From Pirellulales bacterium (lineage in GTDB: Bacteria; Planctomycetota; Planctomycetia; Pirellulales; Thermoguttaceae): a stretch of DNA of 19,159 bases. Where the stretch lies: positions 1-19,159 of the forward strand of contig JAFGPV010000015.1 of NCBI GenBank assembly GCA_016936015.1, in the 5' to 3' direction. The notes beneath the pieces were generated by a model. It did not search any database. It was not told the origin of the DNA and saw only the letters and a list, made by a program, of their open reading frames with translations. Both the position numbers and the translations under genes were made by a program. Positions 9,532 to 19,159 of the stretch are shown here, piece by piece (position 1 is the first letter of the stretch; every line of letters starts with the position of its first letter).

Positions 9532-11111
9532 AAGCGATACTCCAGCCCGAAGCTGACGCCCTGCGCCCAGTAATCGCTCATGGTGAAGGAAAACGCAGGT
9601 TGCAGGGAACCGGTGGGCGTTTCGGGAGGCAACTGCGAGGCGTTCGTGTCAAGCTGGTCGGCGGGCCGCGCGACGCGGCTCCAATAGAGAAAGGCATAGC
9701 CGATTCTCGCATGGAATCGTGGAGTCAACGCATAGCCAAGTGCAACTCCAATTTCCGGCAGCACGGCGAATTGGTTCTGGGTGTACTCCCCGATGTTGGT
9801 CTCTTGCGCCAGCAGGTCGCCGGTGAACGTCGCGGTTCCTCCGCCCGGCACCGTAGTCGTCGTCATGCCGTCAATCAGCACGCGCGAGCGGGTGCTGCCC
9901 AGTCCGAGTTTCAGCAGCGCCTCCCACGACCAACGGCCGACGTACTCTCGATACATGACGCCTAGCTCGACGCCGTTGAACTGATTCTGGGTATCGAACA
10001 GGTCATAGAGGCTCTTGGTGGTGCCGACGACAATCGGCCCCTGCGACCGGGTCCATTCCGAGAACTGGTCGATTCGCACGCTCTCGTCCAACTGGGCGAA
10101 ACGCCAGCCGAAAAGAAAATCCATTCGGTCGCATTCTCGCTGAAAGAGATTGCGCCGCAACAACACCTCCACGGCCTGAAGCTGGCTTGTCGCCTCGCAA
10201 TCGAGCGATCCTCCCAAGAAGTCCGGGTGCGCAGCCAACATGGCGCTTTGGACACTAAATTGGGCGTCGTAGAATGGACGAGCGAGGATGGGCCTCTCCT
10301 GGCTGGAGGCGGAAAACCGGGTCGTCTCCTTTCCGAGGCCCAAGTAACCCGCCTCCACCCCTACGCATTGACAGTCGTCGAACCAATAACCCATGGAACC
10401 ACGCCAGCCCGAGTTCGCTTCGGTGTTAACCATGCCGTTGCCAAAAAGGATGCTCGTGCCCGGTTGCCCCAACACGCCGGACACACTCGGATCCGTGCCC
10501 TCCGGACTGGTTGTCACCAGCGGCGGCAAGGCGCTTCCTTGCGTCCACCAGAGCAAATACTCTCCGCGAACCCACAGGCGATTGTGCCAGATGAAACAGC
10601 ATGGGCGGCAAGTTCCACAGGGATAGCACTCCGCAGGACAACACTCGGCGATACATCCGTCGCCGTCAGGCATGACGTCGGCCGTCTCCTCCGAGCAGCA
10701 CGGCTGCCTCGATAGCCGGACGGGCGACATCGTCTCGTCATCAATCGTGGTTTGAAATCCTGCTTTAACAACCCGGGACGTTCGATGGGCAGGCGATCGC
10801 CGATTGGCAGAATCTCGAGAGTTCGTCGCAGTCGATTTACTGTGTTCCTGTCTCGGGACTGCATTGCGCGAACCGCGATAGGGAGTGGGCGAGTGCCGTC
10901 GAACCACTTCGCGAGATTGCAGCGCCTGCCATAACGGAGTCAAGGGACCGCTATTGTCGGTCTGGGCGAGAACCGGCCATGCATGAAGCAAGATGCCGAT
11001 GAGACTTGTTGACACGATCGCCCTGCCAACAAAGGGAGTTCCAATCGGCCAAACACGCAACTGCGGACATGCCAACTTGACCTTGACCATAGAATAGATG
11101 TCCCTATTCAC
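9528..11111 (-). CDS. BBP7-family-like outer-membrane beta-barrel protein with a Cys-rich N-terminal segment
   Basis: 527-aa ORF with a signal-peptide-like N-terminus (...AIVSTSLIGILLHAWPVLAQ). Cys cluster CCSEETADVMPDGDGCIAECCPAECYPCGTCRPCCFIW followed by RLWVRGEYLLWW. The long C-terminal part has alternating hydrophobic residues and ends ...FGLEYRF, with a C-terminal aromatic typical of OM barrels. Its stop overlaps the stop of the convergent giant gene (CTAG at 9528-9531). Confidence 0.65.
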   Translation of the reverse strand: MNRDIYSMVKVKLACPQLRVWPIGTPFVGRAIVSTSLIGILLHAWPVLAQTDNSGPLTPLWQALQSREVVRRHSPTPYRGSRNAVPRQEHSKSTATNSRDSANRRSPAHRTSRVVKAGFQTTIDDETMSPVRLSRQPCCSEETADVMPDGDGCIAECCPAECYPCGTCRPCCFIWHNRLWVRGEYLLWWTQGSALPPLVTTSPEGTDPSVSGVLGQPGTSILFGNGMVNTEANSGWRGSMGYWFDDCQCVGVEAGYLGLGKETTRFSASSQERPILARPFYDAQFSVQSAMLAAHPDFLGGSLDCEATSQLQAVEVLLRRNLFQRECDRMDFLFGWRFAQLDESVRIDQFSEWTRSQGPIVVGTTKSLYDLFDTQNQFNGVELGVMYREYVGRWSWEALLKLGLGSTRSRVLIDGMTTTTVPGGGTATFTGDLLAQETNIGEYTQNQFAVLPEIGVALGYALTPRFHARIGYAFLYWSRVARPADQLDTNASQLPPETPTGSLQPAFSFTMSDYWAQGVSFGLEYRF

Positions 11112-11650
11112 AAGCTATGCCATATTCACCAGGCAGTTTTTCCAGGAAAACAGGGCCTTTACTTTTTAAAAATGACGTAGACCATGAAACACCCCCATTG
11201 ATTGGATCTCATTTCCTGCTGGATACCACGTCAATACAATGTAAATCCACAGAGTTTATGCCGCTTGCCATATCGGCATATTCAACACCAGTCTTTAGAT
11301 ATCTACTGACCGGCAAAGTATCTGTAAAGCATTCCTGCTCCCTATTCTTCCAGGTCCACGTCATCATCCTTTTTTATCATTCGAAAATGGATGGTATTCG
11401 GGCATTGCGAGGGTGTCTCCGACCATTCAGGACAGTTGCTCAACGAGACGTCCGTCAATTCAGCCACAATACCCTTGTGCATTGGGCACAGGGAGGGCTA
11501 TGCAACGCCTAAGAATCCCCTAAAATGAGAACGTTTCGTCCATTGAAGAAGTTGAGGCTGTGACAGAACACTCGCTGGTTGATGCCAAATGTTTCTGCCA
11601 GCAGTTTTCACTTATTTCTAAAACCTTACGAAGAAAGCAGTTGCAATCAA

Positions 11651-11724
11651 GTCCCCGTAGCTCAATTGGATAGAGCGTCGGCCTCCGGAGCCGAAGGTTA
11701 CAGGTTCGAATCCTGTCGGGGATA
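11651..11724 (+). tRNA. tRNA-Arg(CCG)
   Basis: GTCCCCG TA GCTC AATTGGATA GAGC G TCGGC CTCCGGA GCCGA AGGTT ACAGG TTCGAAT CCTGT CGGGGAT A. Canonical cloverleaf with U8, A14, GG and a GTTCGAATC T-loop. G1.U72 wobble at the top of the acceptor stem. CCA is not encoded. Sits in a low-GC intergenic island. Confidence 0.85.
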
Positions 11725-12182
11725 TTTCTCCTTATTATGCAACGACTTACAACAATTGGGCGGATGGCTTCTGTTTATGTAAGTCATTATTCTTCGATGA
11801 GAGCTTCGGCACAAGGAGTGCTTCATCACAAGAGGCGCTGAGTCTACAGTAGGTGGCGGTTTCCCCGTTTATCCGGCGCGGCAGGTCATCCGGTGAAAGA
11901 CGTGTTTCCCGCACCGTGCCCGGTGTGCAGTATAGGACATCCCAATCCCGCAGGATAATGAAAAACAAGAGAAACTTGCGAAACCGGCATTCACGCTAAA
12001 CTGCGAACTGAAGATCGAGTTGGCCGCCCAAGAGCGGGAATAGGCCAGGGCGGCTACCACAAACGATACCTGGAACTACGGTCACTTCTTGAAACCTGCC
12101 TTAACCGGACTTGTCTATCACGAGTTGCACGAAAACCGGGAAAATCCAAAAATCGGCGGACGAACTCATACAGCCGGTTTGC

Positions 12183-13853
12183 TCATTGTTTCTCTTGAAG
12201 CAGGATTTTCCGCGATTGTCCGGGCTTGATGGAAATTTTTCTGCCGTCGATCAAGTCGGCGCCGGAGACGACGGTCGGGGGTTCGTCGTCGAGTGTGAGT
12301 TGATATTCTTTCTCCTTCCGTACGACGTACCACTGGGGGATTTCATTAATCCGCGCCCAGTCGATCGTGGCCAGTGGATATTCGTTCCGCGGTCCGTCGA
12401 AACAAAGCCGGCCCGACCAGGCGTCTTTCGACTGCACCACGAGCCGCAAGACGCCGTCCGTCCGGACGGCGCCGCAGCCCAATCCTTCCTGGTAGGGCAC
12501 GGCCCGGACGCCTTGCGACTGGAGCATCATGTGGGCGCAGAGGTTCCGGCCGATGCAGCCGTCGGTATGGCCGCCGACGCCGGGACCAAAATGGGAACTC
12601 GCCTTGCGGCGGAAGCCTCCGACTTTTGTGGTCCAGTCGAGCCATGGGGCGACGTCCGGTACGTCGGGATAACGTTTCCAGAGAATGATCATGCTTTCGT
12701 ACGTGTCGCCGAAGCAACCCGGCGCGAAGTTCCAAGGCCACTCGACGTTCCTCAATTCATCGAATCGCGAACGGTTTTCCGTGAGATAGCGCATTGGCTT
12801 TTCCACGGCTTCGCGATAGCGGTTGCCGCCGGTGGCCCGATCGAAGTTCTCCAAGGCAAACAACACGTAGCCCCAGCAGTGCGGCACGTCAGGACTGAAT
12901 TTGGCCCCGAACCTGCCGGGGCGTTTGAGTTTTTGCGGCTTCCCCTGGTTCTTCGGCTGAGGGCCTTCCAGATTGGCATGGGTGTACCACAAGCCGGATT
13001 TCGGATGCCGGCCCACTTCGAGCAGGCGGTCCAGTAACCGTTGCAGATTCTTCCGGTAGGTGTTCACCTTGGGCCGTTTCAGTTTTGACTCCATCACAAA
13101 CAACTCCGACAGGCCGGGAACCAGTTCGCAGCCGTGATCCACGAAGTTGAACTTCTTGATCTTTTTCAGCGGGTCGTCCAGGAGATAGCAATCGGCCAGG
13201 ACCTCGGCGTCGTCGAGATACTCGGTCCGGCCCGACATGGCCGACAGGCGGACTAGGATCTGAATCAAATTGCCCTCGTCCTCGGTTCCATGCACGATTG
13301 TATGGATTCCGCCGCGGCGTCGGCCTTCGGCCAACACGGCGTCGGTCAATCGCACAAACTCGCGGAACCAATCGTTGTCCGTCCCGATGACCTCCGTGAT
13401 TCGCAGCAATCCGTCGCGGAGCCACTCGCACACTGCGCCCACATCCACCTTGCCGGGCGTCATCGTCCTCAAATCATAGGTGCAGGGAATTCCCGATTTG
13501 GTCGCACAGAGCCGGATCGAATCGAGCAGCGTCGCCCGCAGCTTTCCGTCGCCCTCGTTCAAGACCGGCTCCAAGTAATGGGCGATCAGCACCAAGGAGG
13601 AATAATGGTCGGCGGCCTCGTTTTGATAGTTCCAAACAGACCCGCGGCTGAAAAGATGCGTTTGAGGATCCTGTTTCCTCTCGATCCAACCGTGGAGCAG
13701 CCGGAACGCGCTGTTTCCGCAATCGGCATACGTCTCGCAACGCTCTTGGGCGGTTTGCCAAACCGACTCCCCGGAAGGAGCCGCCGGCGCGCTCCCGCCG
13801 AGCGCCGTCGCCAAGAGGAGAAAACCGGTTCTTGTTAGTGTGCGAGACTTCAT
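12183..13853 (-). CDS. Secreted hypothetical protein, possibly an (alpha/alpha)-toroid glycoside-hydrolase-like enzyme
   Basis: ORF 12183-13934. The probable start is M28 at 13853, giving MKSRTLTRTGFLLLATALGGSAPAAPS as a signal peptide. About 556 aa with W/Y/H/D-rich motifs (WYTHANLEG, HCWGYVLFALENFD) that fit a carbohydrate-active enzyme. The family could not be assigned by eye. Confidence 0.55.
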   Translation of the reverse strand: MKSRTLTRTGFLLLATALGGSAPAAPSGESVWQTAQERCETYADCGNSAFRLLHGWIERKQDPQTHLFSRGSVWNYQNEAADHYSSLVLIAHYLEPVLNEGDGKLRATLLDSIRLCATKSGIPCTYDLRTMTPGKVDVGAVCEWLRDGLLRITEVIGTDNDWFREFVRLTDAVLAEGRRRGGIHTIVHGTEDEGNLIQILVRLSAMSGRTEYLDDAEVLADCYLLDDPLKKIKKFNFVDHGCELVPGLSELFVMESKLKRPKVNTYRKNLQRLLDRLLEVGRHPKSGLWYTHANLEGPQPKNQGKPQKLKRPGRFGAKFSPDVPHCWGYVLFALENFDRATGGNRYREAVEKPMRYLTENRSRFDELRNVEWPWNFAPGCFGDTYESMIILWKRYPDVPDVAPWLDWTTKVGGFRRKASSHFGPGVGGHTDGCIGRNLCAHMMLQSQGVRAVPYQEGLGCGAVRTDGVLRLVVQSKDAWSGRLCFDGPRNEYPLATIDWARINEIPQWYVVRKEKEYQLTLDDEPPTVVSGADLIDGRKISIKPGQSRKILLQEKQ

Positions 13854-15633: not shown

Positions 15634-15705
15634 GTGTTGGTACGGGAATCGAACCCGCGACAGCCAGATTCTTGTCTGGTGCTCTAACCTCTGAGCTAAC
15701 CTGGG
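15634..15705 (-). pseudogene. tRNA-like remnant (degenerate: 6-nt anticodon loop, unpaired acceptor stem)
   Basis: Reverse complement has a perfect D-arm TA GCTC AGAGGTTA GAGC A and a T-arm GCGGG TTCGATT CCCGT. The anticodon arm is CCAGA CAAGAA TCTGG, a 6-nt loop. The 5' CCCAGGT does not pair with the 3' ACCAACA. Confidence 0.3.
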
Positions 15706-15812
15706 GTGACGCCGTTGTCAGTCATAACCCATTACGGAACACACGCCGCCGACCGCCTCTTGCAAGGACGGGACGCCGTGCGCCATTGGGCGGCATTACC
15801 TTCCTTAATAAA

Positions 15813-15883
15813 AGACGCCGGTGGGAGTCGAACCCACTTCGATCGGGTTGCAGCCGATTGCCGCGCCGTCTGGCTCCAGCGTC
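15813..15883 (-). tRNA. tRNA-Cys(GCA), atypical D region
   Basis: GACGCTG GA GCC AGACGGCGC GGC A ATCGG CTGCAAC CCGAT CGAA GTGGG TTCGACT CCCAC CGGCGTC U. Anticodon GCA and discriminator U73 fit the Cys identity. G8 and a 3-bp D-stem are unusual. One U.G pair in the acceptor stem. Confidence 0.5.
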
Positions 15884-15931
15884 GTTCGCTTGTTACGGCC
15901 ACTATGTTTCATTGGCCGCACGCTATTAAAA

Positions 15932-16005
15932 TGTCCTCGCCAGGAGTCGAACCTGGTCTTCGACCTTCGCAGGGTCGCGTGCGTAGTCCGCCACACTCCG
16001 AGGAC
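15932..16005 (-). tRNA. tRNA-Arg(GCG), unusual anticodon
   Basis: GTCCTCG GA GTGT GGCGGACTAC GCAC G CGACC CTGCGAA GGTCG AAGA CCAGG TTCGACT CCTGG CGAGGAC A. G8 instead of U8. Same architecture as the neighbouring Arg(TCG) gene. Confidence 0.5.
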
Positions 16006-16047
16006 GGGTTTTCCTTTCTAGGGCCGGTTTGAAACCGGCCCCACGAG

Positions 16048-16119
16048 TACCCTGCCGAGGAATCGAACCTCGTCTGGCAGATTCGAAGTCTGCCGTGCGA
16101 TCCGGCACACTCGCAGGGC
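16048..16119 (-). tRNA. tRNA-Arg(TCG)
   Basis: GCCCTGC GA GTGT GCCGGATC GCAC G GCAGA CTTCGAA TCTGC CAGA CGAGG TTCGATT CCTCG GCAGGGT A. G1.U72 and G8. Confidence 0.55.
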
Positions 16120-16149
16120 GTGTTTTCATTGTCTTTTGCTGATTTCCTA

Positions 16150-16178
16150 TTGCTCTTCACAAGGGGATTGGTATAATG
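16150..16178 (+). promoter_or_regulatory. Sigma70-like promoter with an extended -10 (TTGCTC - 17 nt - TGgTATAAT)
   Basis: ttgctc at 16150-16155, a 17-nt spacer, tataat at 16173-16178 preceded by TGG. Points away from the tRNA array orientation, towards the Zn-ribbon mini-ORF. Confidence 0.4.
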
Positions 16179-16380
16179 GCTGAAAATTACATTCGGCAGG
16201 AGTCGGATCGCTTTATCCTTTCGGAACCGAGCACTCCGAAAGTTCGCTCTCTTGGCTCAACTGATGCGACAGTCATCGGCTTCTCCCAATCCTCAGGCGC
16301 GTCCCCCGCCGTTTGCATAACATCTTATTTGTGATTGGATTTGTGCGTCTTCGACCAAGGTTTTTAGCTGCGCTCATGTT

Positions 16381-16683
16381 GTGCCGCTCCCTTCAGACCT
16401 TTTGGGCATAAGCCACCCAAAAGTATTTCTCTCGGCTTACGTAATGTTCTATTGCCGTTTGTGCGGGCGTCTGGTCCCTCCGCGGACTCGTGCTGTTCGT
16501 AAGGTTCTTCAAACGCGATTAAAGCGGTATCCTTATCGCTCGAAAGCGAATCATGTCGTCCGGATCGAACCCAACGGAAAAAGGAAAAAGGTATACGTGG
16601 ATGACCCCGGCGGCGAAGGCCGGGAAATCGTCCACGAGGTACTGGTTTGTCCTCAATGTGCCAAATTCAATGATCCATCCTAA
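16381..16683 (+). CDS. Small, very basic Zn-ribbon protein (two CxxC pairs). The start is uncertain: GTG at 16381 or ATG at 16444.
   Basis: 80-100 aa: ...MFYCRLCGRLVPPRTRAVRKVLQTRLKRYPYRSKANHVVRIEPNGKRKKVYVDDPGGEGREIVHEVLVCPQCAKFNDPS. CRLC and CPQC at either end. A promoter lies upstream and a strong intrinsic terminator follows the TAA directly. The unit fills the gap between two minus-strand tRNA genes. No SD. Confidence 0.45.
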   Translation: MPLPSDLLGISHPKVFLSAYVMFYCRLCGRLVPPRTRAVRKVLQTRLKRYPYRSKANHVVRIEPNGKRKKVYVDDPGGEGREIVHEVLVCPQCAKFNDPS

Positions 16684-16696
16684 AAGTGTCGCTCTA

Positions 16697-16731
16697 CCTT
16701 GCCGCATAAAACGCGGCAAGGTTTTTTCTTT
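16697..16731 (+). terminator. Rho-independent terminator (CCTTGCCGC-ATAAAAC-GCGGCAAGG + TTTTTTCTTTT)
   Basis: 9-bp GC-rich stem, 7-nt loop, T-tract. It lies 14 nt after the stop of the Zn-ribbon ORF and 17 nt before the next minus-strand tRNA. Confidence 0.6.
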
Positions 16732-16747
16732 TCCTTACCGATTGGAA

Positions 16748-16819
16748 TATCCCGACCTGGAGTCGAACCAGGACATGGACCTTCGGAGGGTCCGATGCAC
16801 TCCACTACACTATCGGGAC
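16748..16819 (-). tRNA. tRNA-Arg(CCG), second copy in the window, array version
   Basis: GTCCCGA TA GTGT AGTGGAG TGCAT C GGACC CTCCGAA GGTCC ATGT CCTGG TTCGACT CCAGG TCGGGAT A. G1.U72. Weak D-stem with two G.U pairs. Confidence 0.5.
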
Positions 16820-16904
16820 TCCTCACCAGAGCCGACGACTGGATTTGCACCAGCATGATGCGGTTTACAAAACCGCTGCCTTGCTGTTCGGCCACGTCGG
16901 CAAG

Positions 16905-16974
16905 CAGGAGTGCAAGGATTCGAACCCTGTGGGACGGCTTTGGAGACCGTCGGCTCTCCCAGGAGCACACTCCT
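16905..16974 (-). tRNA. tRNA-Trp(CCA), compressed D-arm
   Basis: AGGAGTG TG CTC CTGGGA GAG CCG ACGGT CTCCAAA GCCGT CCCA CAGGG TTCGAAT CCTTG CACTCCT G. The anticodon arm is almost identical to bacterial tRNA-Trp. Discriminator G73. 70 nt, with a 3-bp D-stem, a 6-nt D-loop and 3 nt where position 26 should be. Confidence 0.5.
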
Positions 16975-17015
16975 GTAATGCCCCCGACCGTTTGGCCGGG
17001 GGCACGGCGTAACGA

Positions 17016-17612
17016 CTACTTCTGCAACTCAACGTTCCAGTACACTTCGCTAACGAACTTCGACCAGCTTGCGATCCGCAGGCTGTGGTCGGCGTACAAC
17101 GGTTTCCATACCGGTCGGACCGGCTTGCGGCGCAACCGCATTCGGGCCTGCTCCGGCGTGCGGTCGGCCTTACGCTTGTTGCAGGCCATGCAGGCCAGCA
17201 CGCAGTTCTCCCAACTCGACACGCCGCCCTGCGACCGCGGCAGGACGTGGTCGATGGTCAGCTCCTCGCTGCCCGGCTGGGCACCGCAGTACTGACAGGT
17301 GCTGTGATCCCGCTTGAACACGTTCCGGCGACTGAAGGTCACCGCGGCCCGCGGCAACCGGTCATAGCCGGTCAGCGTAACCACCTCCGGCACGCGGAGT
17401 CGAAAGCGGACCGCCTGGACGAACGGCTCGTCGGCGCGCGGCATGAGCCTCAACCAATCCTCCCAGGTGTAGAGTTGGAAGTCGTCGGGATCGACCACGC
17501 GGGCCGACTCGTTCCACAACAGGACCAAGGCCCGTGCCACCGTGGCGACGTGGACCGGCTGCCAGTTGCGGTTCAGGACCAGCGTGGGACGCCGAAGCAC
17601 ACTCCGTACCAT
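17016..17612 (-). CDS. HNH endonuclease
   Basis: The ORF extends to 17690, but the likely start is M27 at 17612 (GGGAG 8 nt upstream), giving MVRSVLRRPTLVLNRNWQP... HNH signature CQYCG...LTIDHVLPRSQGG...WENCVLACMACNKRK. About 198 aa. Embedded in the tRNA array in the same orientation. Confidence 0.8.
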   Translation of the reverse strand: MVRSVLRRPTLVLNRNWQPVHVATVARALVLLWNESARVVDPDDFQLYTWEDWLRLMPRADEPFVQAVRFRLRVPEVVTLTGYDRLPRAAVTFSRRNVFKRDHSTCQYCGAQPGSEELTIDHVLPRSQGGVSSWENCVLACMACNKRKADRTPEQARMRLRRKPVRPVWKPLYADHSLRIASWSKFVSEVYWNVELQK

Positions 17613-17700
17613 GATTATTCTCCCTACATATTGGTTCACTCTCATCAAGCGAATCCGGACTTTCGTCATTCGACATTTGAACTTCGTCATTTTCCTCCAG

Positions 17701-17775
17701 GGTGTCTGGCCGGAGTCGAACCGGCACCCTCTGGTTCACAGCCAGCCGTGCAGGAACCGCTACACCACAGACACC
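17701..17775 (-). tRNA. tRNA-His(GTG) with encoded G-1
   Basis: G GTGTCTG TG GTGT AGCGGTTCCT GCAC G GCTGG CTGTGAA CCAGA GGGT GCCGG TTCGACT CCGGC CAGACAC C. The extra 5' G opposite discriminator C73 is the His hallmark. Confidence 0.8.
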
Positions 17776-17781
17776 GTCAGT

Positions 17782-17864
17782 AGGGATTAGAGGCGAGGGA
17801 TTAGGGATTAGTAATGACACCACATCGGGTTTTGCTAATCCCTAATCCCCAATCCCTAAATCCC
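17782..17864. repeat. Hairpin element with heptamer-repeat arms, (A)GGGATT units, and a 23-nt loop
   Basis: agggattagaggcgagggattagggattag - taatgacaccacatcgggttttg - ctaatccctaatccccaatccctaaatccc. Imperfect inverted arms of about 30 nt built from tandem 7-mers. Sits between tRNA-His and tRNA-Arg(TCT). Confidence 0.6.
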
Positions 17865-17873
17865 TTTCACCAG

Positions 17874-17945
17874 CACCCCGACCAGGACTCGAACCCGGAA
17901 CTCCTCGTTAGAACCGAGGCATGATGTCCGTTTCACCATCGGGGC
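17874..17945 (-). tRNA. tRNA-Arg(TCT)
   Basis: GCCCCGA TG GTGA AACGGACA TCAT G CCTCG GTTCTAA CGAGG AGTT CCGGG TTCGAGT CCTGG TCGGGGT G. G1.U72 and G32. Confidence 0.55.
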
Positions 17946-17948
17946 AAG

Positions 17949-18038
17949 CGGAAGGCATGGGATTCGAACCCACATGGCCCCTTACGGGGCCGCACGGTTT
18001 AGCAAACCGGCCCGGCAAACCGTATCCGGCTACCTTCC
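17949..18038 (-). tRNA. tRNA-Ser(GCT), type II
   Basis: GGAAGGT AG CCGG ATACGGTTTG CCGG G CCGGT TTGCTAA ACCGT GCGGCCCCGTAAGGGGCCA GTGGG TTCGAAT CCCAT GCCTTCC G. Long variable-arm hairpin. Discriminator G. Only 3 nt separate it from the previous gene. Confidence 0.65.
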
Positions 18039-18050
18039 GAAGTTTCACAG

Positions 18051-18123
18051 TGATCCCGGACGGAATTGAACCGTCACTTTCCTGGTTGTCACCCAGGTGT
18101 CTTTACCGTTAGACCACGGGATC
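18051..18123 (-). tRNA. tRNA-Val(GAC)
   Basis: GATCCCG TG GTCT AACGGTAA AGAC A CCTGG GTGACAA CCAGG AAAGT GACGG TTCAATT CCGTC CGGGATC A. Fully canonical. Confidence 0.85.
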
Positions 18124-18133
18124 GTCATCGCAA

Positions 18134-18209
18134 TGACGAGAGCGGGAGTCGAACCCGCAAAATCACGAGGCTCTCGACCTCGCCGCTTTTCCAGTTTGCG
18201 TACCTCGTC
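18134..18209 (-). tRNA. Leu-like tRNA (anticodon GAG) with a type-II D-arm but a short variable region and C33
   Basis: GACGAGG TA CGC AAACTGGAAAA GCG G CGAGG TCGAGAG CCTCG TGATTTT GCGGG TTCGACT CCCGC TCTCGTC A. Discriminator A73 (Leu identity). 7-nt variable region instead of a long arm. Paralog of the gene at 18641-18716. Confidence 0.4.
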
Positions 18210-18216
18210 CTAAGTT

Positions 18217-18282
18217 GCGGGTCCGGGGGTTGCACCCGGTGAGCAGAGCTTATGAAGCTCCACTGGGCACTGGCCGACCCGC
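18217..18282 (-). pseudogene. tRNA-like element with CAT anticodon loop, no D-arm, non-standard T-loop
   Basis: Reverse complement GCGGGTC...GGAGC TTCATAA GCTCT...CCGGG TGCAACC CCCGG ACCCGC. Perfect 7-bp acceptor pairing GCGGGTC/GACCCGC. Anticodon loop TTCATAA. The D region CCAGTGCCCAGT cannot form a D-stem. 66 nt. Confidence 0.25.
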
Positions 18283-18293
18283 GGCGTATTCAG

Positions 18294-18363
18294 TTGCAGG
18301 CCCCGGTATCGAACCGGGCGCACCGGCCTTATGGGAGCCAGTTGGGCACCTGCCGCGCCTGCA
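18294..18363 (-). tRNA. tRNA-Met/Ile2-like (anticodon CAT) with a degenerate D-arm and C33
   Basis: TGCAGGC GC GGCAGGTGCCCAAC TGGCT CCCATAA GGCCG GTGCG CCCGG TTCGATA CCGGG GCCTGCA A. Perfect acceptor and T-arm. No pairable D-stem. 70 nt. Confidence 0.3.
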
Positions 18364-18370
18364 GCGACAG

Positions 18371-18454
18371 TGACCAAGGGGAGATTCGAACTCCCAAGCC
18401 CTTTAAGGCACGACGTTCTGAGCGTCGCGCGTCTTCCAGTTGCGCCACTTGGTC
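18371..18454 (-). tRNA. tRNA-Leu(CAG), type II
   Basis: GACCAAG TG GCG CAACTGGAAGA CGC G CGACG CTCAGAA CGTCG TGCCTTAAAGGGCTT GGGAG TTCGAAT CTCCC CTTGGTC A. Canonical. Confidence 0.8.
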
Positions 18455-18464
18455 ATTTCTTCAG

Positions 18465-18538
18465 TGGCCCGTGCGGGAATTGAACCCGCCTTTCCGGCTT
18501 GAGGGGCCAGCGTCCTAAGGCCGATAGACGAACGGGCC
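18465..18538 (-). tRNA. tRNA-Glu(CTC), C33
   Basis: GGCCCGT TC GTCT ATCGGCCTTA GGAC G CTGGC CCCTCAA GCCGG AAAG GCGGG TTCAATT CCCGC ACGGGCC A. The D-arm closely resembles E. coli tRNA-Glu. Confidence 0.6.
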
Positions 18539-18548
18539 GGTTTTTCAG

Positions 18549-18635
18549 TGGGTCGTGAAGGAATTGAACCTCTCGTCGTCCACCTCACTTCTTTTGCGAC
18601 AACGGCTTTACGGGCCGCCGTGAGGAACACAACCC
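18549..18635 (-). tRNA. tRNA-Tyr-like (anticodon GTA) with a truncated D region and an oversized variable arm
   Basis: GGGTTGT GT TCCTCACG GCGGC CCGTAAA GCCGT TGTCGCAAAAGAAGTGAGGTGGACGAC AGAGG TTCAATT CCTTC ACGACCC A. 87 nt. Only 8 nt where the D-arm should be. Weak T-stem. C33. Confidence 0.35.
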
Positions 18636-18640
18636 TCCAG

Positions 18641-18716
18641 TGGCACAGACGGGAGTCGAACCCGCAAAATCACGAAGGTTTGAGCTTGGCCGCTTTTCCG
18701 ATTTGCGTACCGTGCC
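18641..18716 (-). tRNA. Leu-like tRNA (anticodon CAA), type-II D-arm but short variable region
   Basis: GGCACGG TA CGC AAATCGGAAAA GCG G CCAAG CTCAAAC CTTCG TGATTTT GCGGG TTCGACT CCCGT CTGTGCC A. Near-identical backbone to the gene at 18134-18209. Discriminator A73. Confidence 0.4.
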
Positions 18717-18730
18717 TCACTTTTCCAAAG

Positions 18731-18805
18731 CGCCCTCGACGGGATTTGAACCCGCGATCTCCTGCGTGACAGGCAGGCGAGCACTCCAAGCTGCTCCACA
18801 AGGGC
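18731..18805 (-). tRNA. tRNA-Asp(GTC)
   Basis: GCCCTTG TG GAGC AGCTTGGAGT GCTC G CCTGC CTGTCAC GCAGG AGATC GCGGG TTCAAAT CCCGT CGAGGGC G. Canonical. Discriminator G73. Confidence 0.85.
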
Positions 18806-18810
18806 ATGAT

Positions 18811-18923
18811 CGGAGGGATGAAGGATGAAGGATGAGGGATGAGGAAACTCAACCATATCCAGATCAATCCTTCATTCATCCTTCATCCCTCATCCTTCAT
18901 CCCTCATCCTTCATCCCTCATCC
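18811..18923. repeat. Hairpin element made of tandem heptamers GGATGA(A/G) and their complement TCATCC(C/T), with a 24-nt loop
   Basis: Left arm ggagggatgaaggatgaaggatgagggatgagg. Loop aaactcaaccatatccagatcaat. Right arm ccttcattcatccttcatccctcatccttcatccctcatccttcatccctcatcc, about 7.5 heptamer units. Same architecture as the element at 17782-17864. Confidence 0.6.
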
Positions 18924-18925
18924 AG

Positions 18926-18998
18926 TGGTCCTGGGCGGACTCGAACCGCCGATCGTCACCTTGTAAGGGTGCTGCCGTCGCCGCTGGGCCACAGGACC
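18926..18998 (-). tRNA. tRNA-Val(TAC)
   Basis: GGTCCTG TG GCCC AGCGGCGA CGGC A GCACC CTTACAA GGTGA CGATC GGCGG TTCGAGT CCGCC CAGGACC A. Confidence 0.75.
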
Positions 18999-19009
18999 AT
19001 AATTCAAAG

Positions 19010-19095
19010 CGGAAGCCGTGGGACTCGAACCCATAAGCGGCTGCTCGCCGCCACCTGTTTTCAAGACAGGCTCCTCATCCGGCCGGATGACTTCC
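19010..19095 (-). tRNA. tRNA-Ser(TGA), type II
   Basis: GGAAGTC A TCC GGCCGGATGA GGA G CCTGT CTTGAAA ACAGG TGGCGGCGAGCAGCCGCT TGGG TTCGAGT CCCA C GGCTTCC G. The acceptor and anticodon arms are nearly identical to E. coli tRNA-Ser(UGA). Only one nucleotide lies between the acceptor and the D-stem. Confidence 0.65.
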
Positions 19096-19105
19096 GTCTG
19101 TGAAG

Positions 19106-19159
19106 CTGCGGGAGCTGGACTTGAACCAACATGACGACGTTCAGAGCGTCGCATCCTGC
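19106..19159 (-). tRNA. tRNA-Gln(CTG), 3' part only (5' end lies beyond the window edge)
   Basis: ...CGACG CTCTGAA CGTCG TCAT GTTGG TTCAAGT CCAGC TCCCGCA G. The window ends inside the D-arm. Confidence 0.5.

Follow-up and report, generated by a model that had tools for sequence, protein, structure and literature searches.

Between two tRNA genes of a planctomycete lies a palindrome built of tandem heptanucleotides, which belongs to a class of hairpins defined by a period of 7, by the inverted arrangement of its arms and by a G-first orientation, not by sequence. The element occupies positions 18813-18923 of a stretch of 19,159 nucleotides from a Pirellulales bacterium (contig JAFGPV010000015.1 of assembly GCA_016936015.1), which we call the window, and it stands in a long tRNA array read from the minus strand. 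It is neither a canonical terminator nor a transposed element. The explanation that we favour, giving it about an even chance of being right, is that it is a palindrome born of slippage and carried along as a transcribed spacer of the tRNA operon, without a sequence-specific function.

The element and its repeats

Tandem Repeats Finder and a scan of our own both recover the heptamer repeats of this hairpin, which lies in non-coding DNA and is laid out with its neighbours as follows:

18813-18844, minus strand: short arm, GGATGAR on the plus strand (Tandem Repeats Finder: period 7, 4.6 copies, 92% matches)
18845-18874, minus strand: loop region, 22 nt of unique, AT-richer sequence and one decayed unit
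18875-18923, minus strand: long arm, TCATCCY on the plus strand (Tandem Repeats Finder: period 7, 7.0 copies)
18925-18998, minus strand: tRNA-Val(tac), the upstream operon neighbour (ARAGORN; Rfam tRNA, 59 bits)
18730-18805, minus strand: tRNA-Asp(gtc), the downstream neighbour (ARAGORN; Rfam tRNA, 58 bits)

Read in the sense of the tRNA genes, the long arm is the 5' arm, in which GGATGAG and GGATGAA alternate over seven GGATGAR units, and the short arm is the 3' arm, with 4.6 units of YTCATCC. Positions 18876-18923 form a perfect 14-nt super-repeat (Tandem Repeats Finder: period 14, 3.4 copies, 100% matches). Our scan follows the long array further inward, to 18867, which gives 8.1 units over 18867-18923, the innermost of them degenerate; the inner units left unpaired are decayed. 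G exceeds C in the 5' arm (0.53 vs 0). Depending on how degenerate units are counted, 22-30 nt separate the two arrays, with a GC content of 0.36-0.37 against 0.51 in the arms, and neither the metagenome nor the viral collections contain an exact match to the loop. The arms are 94% complementary over 32 nt (18813-18844 with 18888-18919), and they also pair at 91-96% in several other registers and at 89-94% in registers shifted by 7 or 14 nt. The word GGATGARGGATGAR, with at most one mismatch, occurs nine times, always inside the hairpin element, where 0.04 occurrences are expected from shuffles. Folded as RNA in tRNA sense, the 119-nt spacer reaches -65.5 kcal/mol (shuffle mean -41.4, z = -5.8; 0/200 shuffles as stable), and the DNA of the hairpin folds at -31.9 kcal/mol (z = -6.4). 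The element takes up the whole spacer between tRNA-Val(tac) and tRNA-Asp(gtc): the 3' end of the former, which encodes no CCA, is 1-2 nt from the hairpin, and the 5' end of the latter 7 nt.

An earlier note on this DNA had described a GGATGAR/TCATCCY heptamer hairpin between tRNA-Asp and tRNA-Val, and both the positions of the repeats and the complementarity of the arms bear it out. It named the flanking tRNA genes correctly and put them 3-6 nt from the repeats, where we measure 7 nt and 1 nt. The 24-nt low-GC loop that it saw is indeed low in GC here and falls within our range of lengths; it is not a feature of the class, since the median GC of 34 related hairpins is 0.54 in the loops and 0.55 in the arms.

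The same slot in related arrays

The array holds a second, sister hairpin, which is of the same class and has a different unit, and a gene for an HNH endonuclease, whose protein served as the marker for finding homologous arrays:

15639-19159, minus strand: long tRNA array (L-array type), carrying both hairpins and continuing past the end of the window
17016-17612, minus strand: HNH endonuclease gene between tRNA-His and tRNA-Trp (Pfam HNH, 1.9e-14)
17781-17865, minus strand: sister hairpin between tRNA-Arg(tct) and tRNA-His(gtg), unit GGGATTA/TAGGGAT, 4.4 and 4.3 units (RNA fold -42.4 kcal/mol, z -4.6)

Relatives of the HNH protein were found in 478 stretches of species-representative genomes and 517 of metagenomes; the genome records are nearly all metagenome-assembled genomes of Pirellulales, Thermoguttaceae, Isosphaeraceae or other Planctomycetota. 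Above about 74% identity of the HNH protein, its gene is embedded in arrays that have as many as 40 tRNA genes and share one conserved order (Phe-Glu-Pro-Pro-Ile-Lys-Ile-Lys-Thr-Gly-Pro-Asn-Ser-Gly-Gln-Gln-Ser-Val-Leu-Leu-Asp-Leu-Tyr-Glu-Leu-Met-Met-Leu-Val-Thr-Ala-Ala-Ser-Arg-His-[HNH]-Trp-Thr-Arg-Arg-Arg-Cys), and about 90 loci have this gene order and HNH position in common.

Hairpins of the GGNNGAR type, 64-119 nt long, stand directly upstream of tRNA-Asp(gtc) in the window and in at least five other lineages (loci L216, L136, L141, L151 and L206), with differing unit numbers and unrelated loops. The flanking tRNAs of L216 are 94% identical to those of the window, and its arms have about 2.5 and 3.5 units where those of the window have 8 and 4.6. 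The slot of the sister element is likewise occupied in L203, by a GGGATTR hairpin after tRNA-Arg(tct) with the same unit. Between lineages, which is the level at which we compared copy number, repeat number changes by unit-sized steps and position is kept.

The slot of the hairpin is the one that tRNA-Leu(tag) fills in related arrays. Hairpins occur at the Asp slot solely where this gene is absent (6/14 arrays without it vs 0/27 with it, counts that are phylogenetically non-independent), and the arrays that have them form two separate clusters of flanking-tRNA similarity. L132 has neither tRNA-Leu(tag) nor a hairpin there, only a 12-nt spacer, and the closest HNH relatives, at 86-89% identity (L202, L122, L123 and L001), have complete arrays from which heptamer hairpins are absent.

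An origin of the repeats from the lost tRNA was considered and rejected. The acceptor stems of tRNA-Leu(tag) (GGCTCGG/CTGAGCC) and of tRNA-Ser(gga) do not match the units, and the local alignment of the spacer with the Val-Leu-Asp region of four relatives scores 14, no better than shuffles (null mean about 13-15). Spacer and relatives have only one word in common, the 7-mer AGGGATG, which equals the repeat unit and lies within tRNA-Leu(tag), in its variable arm (L133, L145, L202, L219); statistically unremarkable as it is, it could have been the seed of the repeat.

A class of 7-periodic hairpins

We surveyed 160 related loci (1.9 Mb) for strong hairpins, defined by 16 or more paired bases, complementarity of 80% or more and a span of at most 200 nt, and scored periodicity in each arm; strong hairpins with a 7-nt periodicity in both arms are called H7 hairpins below. 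Among the genome loci, taken with the window and L001 (1.38 Mb), period 7 was found in 12/15 strong hairpins between array tRNAs and in 8/11 beside a tRNA, against 5/87 elsewhere, and the metagenome loci (0.55 Mb) gave 9/13, 5/6 and 4/61, respectively. Both sets together thus have period 7 in 34/45 hairpins in or beside arrays and in 9/148 elsewhere. Tandem runs in array spacers follow the same period: seven have period 7, one has period 8, and none was found with periods 4-6 or 9-12.

More than ten different units build these hairpins (e.g. GGATGAR, GGGATTA, TGAGCNN, GGGAGCN, TTAGCNG, CAGCTTT, GTCGAGR, GGGCAGT and GGAAAGC), and they usually combine a constant core of 4-5 nt with 2-3 variable positions, as in GAAGGNN, TGAGCNN and TTAGCNG. 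Period, inversion and G-first orientation are conserved; unit sequence and quadruplex potential are not. The median hairpin has 21.5 paired bases, a 24.5-nt loop and a total length of 77 nt, about that of a tRNA gene, and is flanked, cassette-like, by normal spacers of 1-25 nt. Examined for mirror symmetry, the arms have a complementarity of 0.90 in register and of 0.78 when shifted, a difference that is inflated since the detector picks the best register. A hairpin directly follows the HNH gene in at least seven lineages. Units may differ between the hairpins of one genome, with two in the window and at least four in L151; in L244 all four slots use GGAAAGC, each with a loop unrelated to the others, L132 uses mostly TGAGCNN, and other genomes use several units.

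From the two copies in the window, the earlier note had argued for a structured element class and against chance. The enrichment in homologous arrays agrees with this, and the class is much larger than two copies and uses many units. Its view that the two copies share an asymmetric design has to be given up, as the arms of the sister are symmetric; asymmetry does not mark the class either, the arms differing in length by at most 3 nt in 16 of the 34 related hairpins, while the longer arm is on the 5' side in 8 and on the 3' side in 10. Of the two origins it had offered, local generation by slippage gains from the super-repeat, from the copy-number differences within one slot and from the pairing in several registers, and mobilisation loses from the absence of a target-site duplication and from the unrelated loops of same-unit copies in L244. 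The note had further reasoned that an invariant repeat number together with a unique sequence would speak against it; the number varies among relatives and the unit is also found in phages and on a Thiodictyon plasmid, which favours its reading.

Occurrence outside tRNA arrays

Three successive GGATGAR units, and with them the GGATGAG/GGATGAA hairpin, occur in at least 120 contigs of a viral collection (L002-L121, IMG/VR), none of which has a tRNA array; those sampled code for the portal, terminase and capsid proteins of phages of different types. Of the 152 strong hairpins on the viral contigs, 68 are 7-periodic, and not all of these have the unit that had been searched for. Most stand between genes of the same direction, with a median distance of 6 nt from the upstream stop codon to the start of the hairpin. 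An identical GGATGAG/GGATGAA hairpin is present on plasmid pTs485 of the gammaproteobacterium Thiodictyon syntrophicum (L286, 10011-10076), 2 nt after the stop codon of secB and followed by TTTT; it adjoins a DISARM defence gene. The L-array of a Nostoc plasmid has spacers of 2-9 nt and no heptamers, which rules out that the hairpins are a universal feature of L-arrays. The HNH matches on Tsukamurella and Acaryochloris plasmids have no array within 8 kb on each side, nor has the match on a 595-kb phage within 10 kb on each side.

Tests for signals in the RNA and at the borders

Selection for pairing in the RNA sense was sought in the mismatches of the tRNA-sense RNA and rejected, there being no excess of the G-U type (12) over the A-C type (11). 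A polarity of the longer arm relative to tRNA direction was rejected on the arm counts given above. The stem of about 30 bp has a length compatible with an RNase III processing stem. Its tail reads GAUCAU and then gives way to tRNA-Asp, so that a T-run is absent after the stem, and the terminator scan of the window did not call the hairpin; the same scan called a textbook stem and T-run at 16696-16722. For the class as a whole, the 10 nt downstream are no T-richer than beside non-periodic hairpins in viral contigs, where short AAA/TTT flanks are only mildly commoner beside periodic hairpins (25/67 vs 14/83).

A G-quadruplex as the unifying feature was also rejected: the motif of four G3 tracts with spacings of 1-7 nt was found in 0/34 array hairpins and on neither strand of 18806-18924. 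The sister hairpin has the canonical form of this motif. No target-site duplication was found; the flanks of the hairpin (T at one end, GATCAT at the other) bear no relation to the L132 sequence in which the site is empty. GGAGG and GGATGAR units form the beginnings of the arms, and no GTAG or CGTC head of a repetitive extragenic palindromic (REP) element is evident at their ends as read from the sequence, without a systematic search. Rfam, on both strands, returned only generic microRNA-precursor models, the best at 46 bits where 91 are needed.

The host array and its surroundings

ARAGORN finds 17 minus-strand tRNAs in 15639-19159, out of 18 in the whole window, and Rfam adds tRNA matches at 15639-15701, 18549-18636 and 19106-19159. 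With these 17 and at least three Rfam matches within 3.5 kb, and a packing of about 5-6 tRNA genes per kb, the array is a tRNA array unit in the density definition of at least 20 tRNA genes and at least 2 per kb (Tran et al. 2016, PMC4758250). tRNA-like sequences missed by ARAGORN lie at 18210-18369, 18549-18636, 15639-15701 and 19106-19159. Two of them fill the slot of the two tRNA-Met(cat) genes of relatives; one, in the tRNA-Tyr slot, scores 21 bits in Rfam and has an anticodon loop that seems non-standard by eye; one is a good Rfam tRNA (39 bits), and one is cut by the end of the window. Related arrays have many spacers of about 80-170 nt with the look of atypical tRNAs of this sort.

The HNH protein matches a contig of the viral collection at 86% identity. 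The whole unit of HNH gene and tRNA array is present in two or three copies in several planctomycete genome bins, on different contigs or at different positions (L122/L123, L125/L128, L130/L134/L178, L144/L145 and L129/L141), and one array lies on a 94-kb contig classed as viral (L001), which suggests that the array is duplicated or mobile.

A gap of 628 nt in the array contains, on the plus strand and antisense to the tRNA genes, an open reading frame (ORF) of 100 amino acids with two CxxC pairs, zinc-ribbon-like, in window positions 16381-16732; among the relatives, L124, L134 and L122 have gaps of similar length (about 550-630 nt) not far from this position. It is followed by the textbook intrinsic terminator already mentioned, a 10-bp stem and then TTTTTCTTTT. 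Two more inverted repeats of the window, at 241-305 and 1214-1344, are not 7-periodic and lie inside or next to ORFs; one has 29-nt arms of 86% complementarity around a 7-nt loop, and the other 24-nt arms of the CTCCCCTCTCCC/GGGAGAGGGGAG type, 83 nt apart. In the stretch 11000-12200, which is low in GC (0.475 vs about 0.6), a single tRNA-Arg(ccg) stands by itself on the plus strand (11651-11724), and 17 nt are duplicated in tandem at 11799-11832. The other proteins of the window, whose GC content is about 0.6, include PSD1, PSCyt2, DUF1501 and BBP7 domains, which are typical of Planctomycetota. For three of the window's proteins, no identical sequence was retrieved.

Discussion

Heptanucleotide simple-sequence repeats make up this palindrome, and in its general kind it goes with the convergent GGGAATC pairs of Xanthomonas and the short tandemly repeated repetitive (STRR) sequences of Nostoc. 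We attribute it to slippage because of the super-repeat of the long arm, the unequal unit numbers, the pairing in shifted registers and the decayed inner units. Replication slippage in steps of 7 and 14 nt would expand and contract each arm, a step that is partly shown, and the arms would be kept inverted copies of one unit family, presumably by template switching or gene conversion inside the quasi-palindrome. The outcome would be a slippery stem able to pair in several registers. Transcription within the polycistronic tRNA precursor would yield a hairpin of about 120 nt with a near-perfect stem of 30 bp, which would probably be excised as the tRNAs are released, tRNA-Val by RNase Z-type processing at its 3' end and tRNA-Asp by RNase P at its 5' end. 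Endonucleolytic 3' processing is the established route for tRNA genes that lack CCA, and it is expected here since CCA is not encoded after tRNA-Val. No particular sequence would be needed for this, and the hairpin may at most be a structured filler of tRNA size through which an untranslated part of the operon stays folded. The lack of any orientation-dependent signal is what is expected of a palindrome that exists at the level of DNA.

Several observations weigh against slippage as the whole account. The density of H7 hairpins is about 19-fold higher in the arrays than in their flanks (0.32 vs 0.017 per kb of non-coding DNA, on crude gene calls; Fisher p = 3e-13 on hairpin counts). The G-rich arm is the 5' arm in 102/110 periodic hairpins and in 110/221 non-periodic ones, which serve as the control; as a palindrome reads G-first on both strands, this asymmetry is two-fold symmetric. 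Some genomes have a single unit family in every slot, as L244 in 4/4 and L132 in most. L162 has inverted TTTTGCR arrays at 548-672 and 982-1151 that bracket whole tRNA genes (a tRNA-Glu-like sequence and tRNA-Asp), with arms that form leader-trailer stems of 17-21 bp resembling the processing stems of rRNA. Finally, the hairpin of the Asp slot persists in lineages whose HNH proteins are only 75-85% identical to that of the window, and across both clusters of flanking tRNAs. Array enrichment, the G-first rule and persistence in the slot may reflect selection for a folded spacer or a dedicated generating process, and slippage alone leaves the period of 7 unexplained.

Among the repeats already described, those of Xanthomonas come closest. 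Some 185 sites carry GGGAATC repeats, with 70-75 convergent inverted pairs per genome from which stem-loops can form; their place is intergenic, on average 28 nt from the upstream gene, four units are commonest and length varies between species (Rehm et al. 2015, PLoS One, PMC4692102). Our hairpin has the defining architecture of these convergent pairs: a tandem unit of 7 nt in at least two and typically about four copies, a conserved core with variable positions, an intergenic place near where the upstream gene ends, a G-rich array that comes first on either strand, and a length that varies between relatives with position kept. It differs in belonging to Planctomycetota and to a class of many units, mostly without G-tracts, which lack the at least four G3 tracts (GGGNATC-type) of the quadruplex definition; moreover, the hairpins are concentrated in the spacers of tRNA arrays, at slots of missing tRNAs, and not spread genome-wide. 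Nostoc has GGGGA(C/T)T heptamer repeats, rarely in inverted pairs; these and the Xanthomonas repeats are transcribed, form G-quadruplexes in vitro and have no known function, and slippage over the footprint of the polymerase has been cited as an idea for the bias towards seven (PMC4692102).

The cyanobacterial STRR sequences resemble ours as tandem heptanucleotides in non-coding DNA with several unit families per genome; their units are different, and the Nostoc L-array that we examined contains no such repeats. The named families of STRR sequences have units of the CCCCAGT type and others. The STRR heptamers of Calothrix PCC 7601 are cited in PMC4692102. TAACTGA heptamers, found in Beggiatoaceae, some Cyanobacteria and Bacteroidetes, are shared across phyla without an evident mechanism of transfer, and binding by S1, Csp and CsrA proteins has been proposed for them but is untested (MacGregor 2015, PMC4679880). 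They share with our repeats the intergenic location and the spread of one unit over distant phyla; unlike ours, they are almost all direct (one is indirect) and stand just upstream of start codons, and they are not intergenic palindromes.

L-arrays with a linked HNH homing endonuclease have been described, with Planctomycetes among the groups listed, in a paper whose main text does not contain the words 'hairpin', 'heptamer' or 'spacer' (Santamaria-Gomez et al. 2021, PMC8421152). The present array matches them in its dozens of packed tRNA genes and its linked gene for a homing-type HNH endonuclease, and differs in that the planctomycete gene is embedded between tRNA-His and tRNA-Trp instead of lying upstream. 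In Anabaena, translational stress induces L-arrays. Our literature searches found no description of heptamer hairpins in Planctomycetota or in tRNA arrays, nor one of the repeat strings as such. By analogy, the hairpins may be likened to REP elements and RNase III stems, as intercistronic stem-loops of polycistronic transcripts with stems long enough for a nuclease specific for double strands; no sequence is shared with either. REP elements have fixed heads and an associated transposase, and RNase III acts on stems in rRNA operons and at intercistronic sites of phage T7. In L162 a whole tRNA is enclosed by the arms, much as 16S and 23S are by the processing stems of rRNA.

The main contender to slippage, which we consider less probable without dismissing it, is that the hairpin is a functional RNA spacer. 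It could act as an RNase III-type entry site, or as a shield against Rho loading or exonuclease entry that protects the roughly 20 downstream tRNAs, the heptamer being a cheap mutational route to a long stem. The strong enrichment inside arrays and the occupation of missing-tRNA slots agree with such a role, as do the tRNA-like size of the elements, their cassette-like flanks and stems of suitable length for RNase III in the class as well as here. The G-first order would mean that the C-rich arm is never exposed before its partner. The bracketing arms of L162 recall processing stems, and the phage hairpins follow stop codons closely, as intercistronic hairpins do. However, neither the mismatches nor the lengths of the arms show a preference for the RNA sense or for tRNA direction. 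Intact arrays do without such hairpins in the closest HNH relatives, L132, also without tRNA-Leu(tag), has just a 12-nt spacer at the very slot, and the short spacers of the Nostoc L-array have none.

A bolder proposal we judge unlikely, though not negligible: planctomycete L-arrays would harbour sequence-independent, strictly 7-periodic, G-first hairpin cassettes, which a dedicated process makes or maintains or a factor working in a 7-nt register reads, and which serve as tRNA-sized RNA modules (processing stems or Rho shields) that replace lost tRNA genes or bracket tRNA genes. If this were true, heptamer periodicity would mark a mechanism common to the unexplained repeats of Xanthomonas, cyanobacteria, Chromatiaceae and their phages.

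Repair of a double-strand break is a distinctly improbable origin. A break, made for example by the resident HNH enzyme, would delete a tRNA gene, and repeated 7-nt templated synthesis on both 3' ends would precede joining, so that G-rich repeats would converge on a loop of junk sequence. Such a scar would account for the G-first orientation on both strands, for unequal arms and unrelated loops, for missing tRNA genes and for the enrichment in HNH-linked arrays, and hairpins do directly follow the HNH gene in several lineages. However, both arms of a hairpin have one unit, yet units differ within a genome, so that a single template cannot explain them. The same type of hairpin stands between phage protein genes and on the Thiodictyon plasmid with no HNH or tRNA genes nearby, and no enzyme with the activity called for was identified here.

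We give slightly less weight still to the idea that the repeats are read in steps of 7 nt, either as serial binding sites, with GGAUGAR recognised by an RNA-binding protein, or as a G-quadruplex of the G-rich arm, which has been proposed for the Xanthomonas repeats. The constancy of the 4-5 nt core within an array and the recurrence of GGATGAR across phyla would suit it, as would the GGAU motifs in the extra unpaired units and loop of our hairpin and the quadruplex motif of the sister. GGAUGAR may be likened to the CAGGAUG repeats of the sponge RNA CsrB and the core ARGGAUG selected for CsrA by systematic evolution of ligands by exponential enrichment, and HutP reads UAG-N4 at a period of 7. 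Against it, the units vary widely, many of them without GGA or G-tracts (CAGCTTT, TTAGCNG, TTTTGCR), the canonical quadruplex motif is missing from the 34 array hairpins and from 18806-18924, and most units are sequestered in the stem.

It is very improbable that the element is a mobile palindrome, similar to REP elements or to miniature inverted-repeat transposable elements, that inserts into tRNA spacers. Its patchy presence among relatives, the use of one unit in several slots of L244 and L132 and the occurrence of the same unit across phyla and in phages could be read in this way. We hold it not to be mobile because there is no target-site duplication, the flanks being unrelated to the empty site of L132, and because loops are wholly different between same-unit copies; furthermore, the arms are not terminal repeats of fixed length, the heads sought by eye at their ends are not evident, and no transposase gene was noted in the window. 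We give just as little credence to a transcription terminator or attenuator that splits the array into sub-operons: the stem is very stable and the plasmid and phage copies lie just past stop codons, with TTTT following in Thiodictyon, but ours is not a terminator because it has no T-run and was not called by the scan, the class is no T-richer downstream than its controls, the canonical terminator of the same window looks quite different, and termination here would silence about 20 downstream tRNA genes.

Slippage without sequence-specific function remains the reading that we favour, and the setting in which it can be examined gives the locus its interest. In several groups of bacteria heptanucleotide repeats are over-represented, and an accepted explanation for them has been lacking for decades. 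The locus is an unusually clean place to study them, being an untranslated and tightly packed operon in which all neighbours are tRNAs with known processing sites, and dozens of homologous arrays with and without hairpins allow comparison. The conservation of period, inversion and G-first orientation without a conserved sequence narrows the possible explanations. Placed in tRNA arrays, the old question of the heptamer repeats becomes testable, that is, whether they are by-products of slippage, processing signals or shields that guard against early termination. Even if they are only by-products, they would still provide a useful annotation rule for the tRNA arrays of Planctomycetota.

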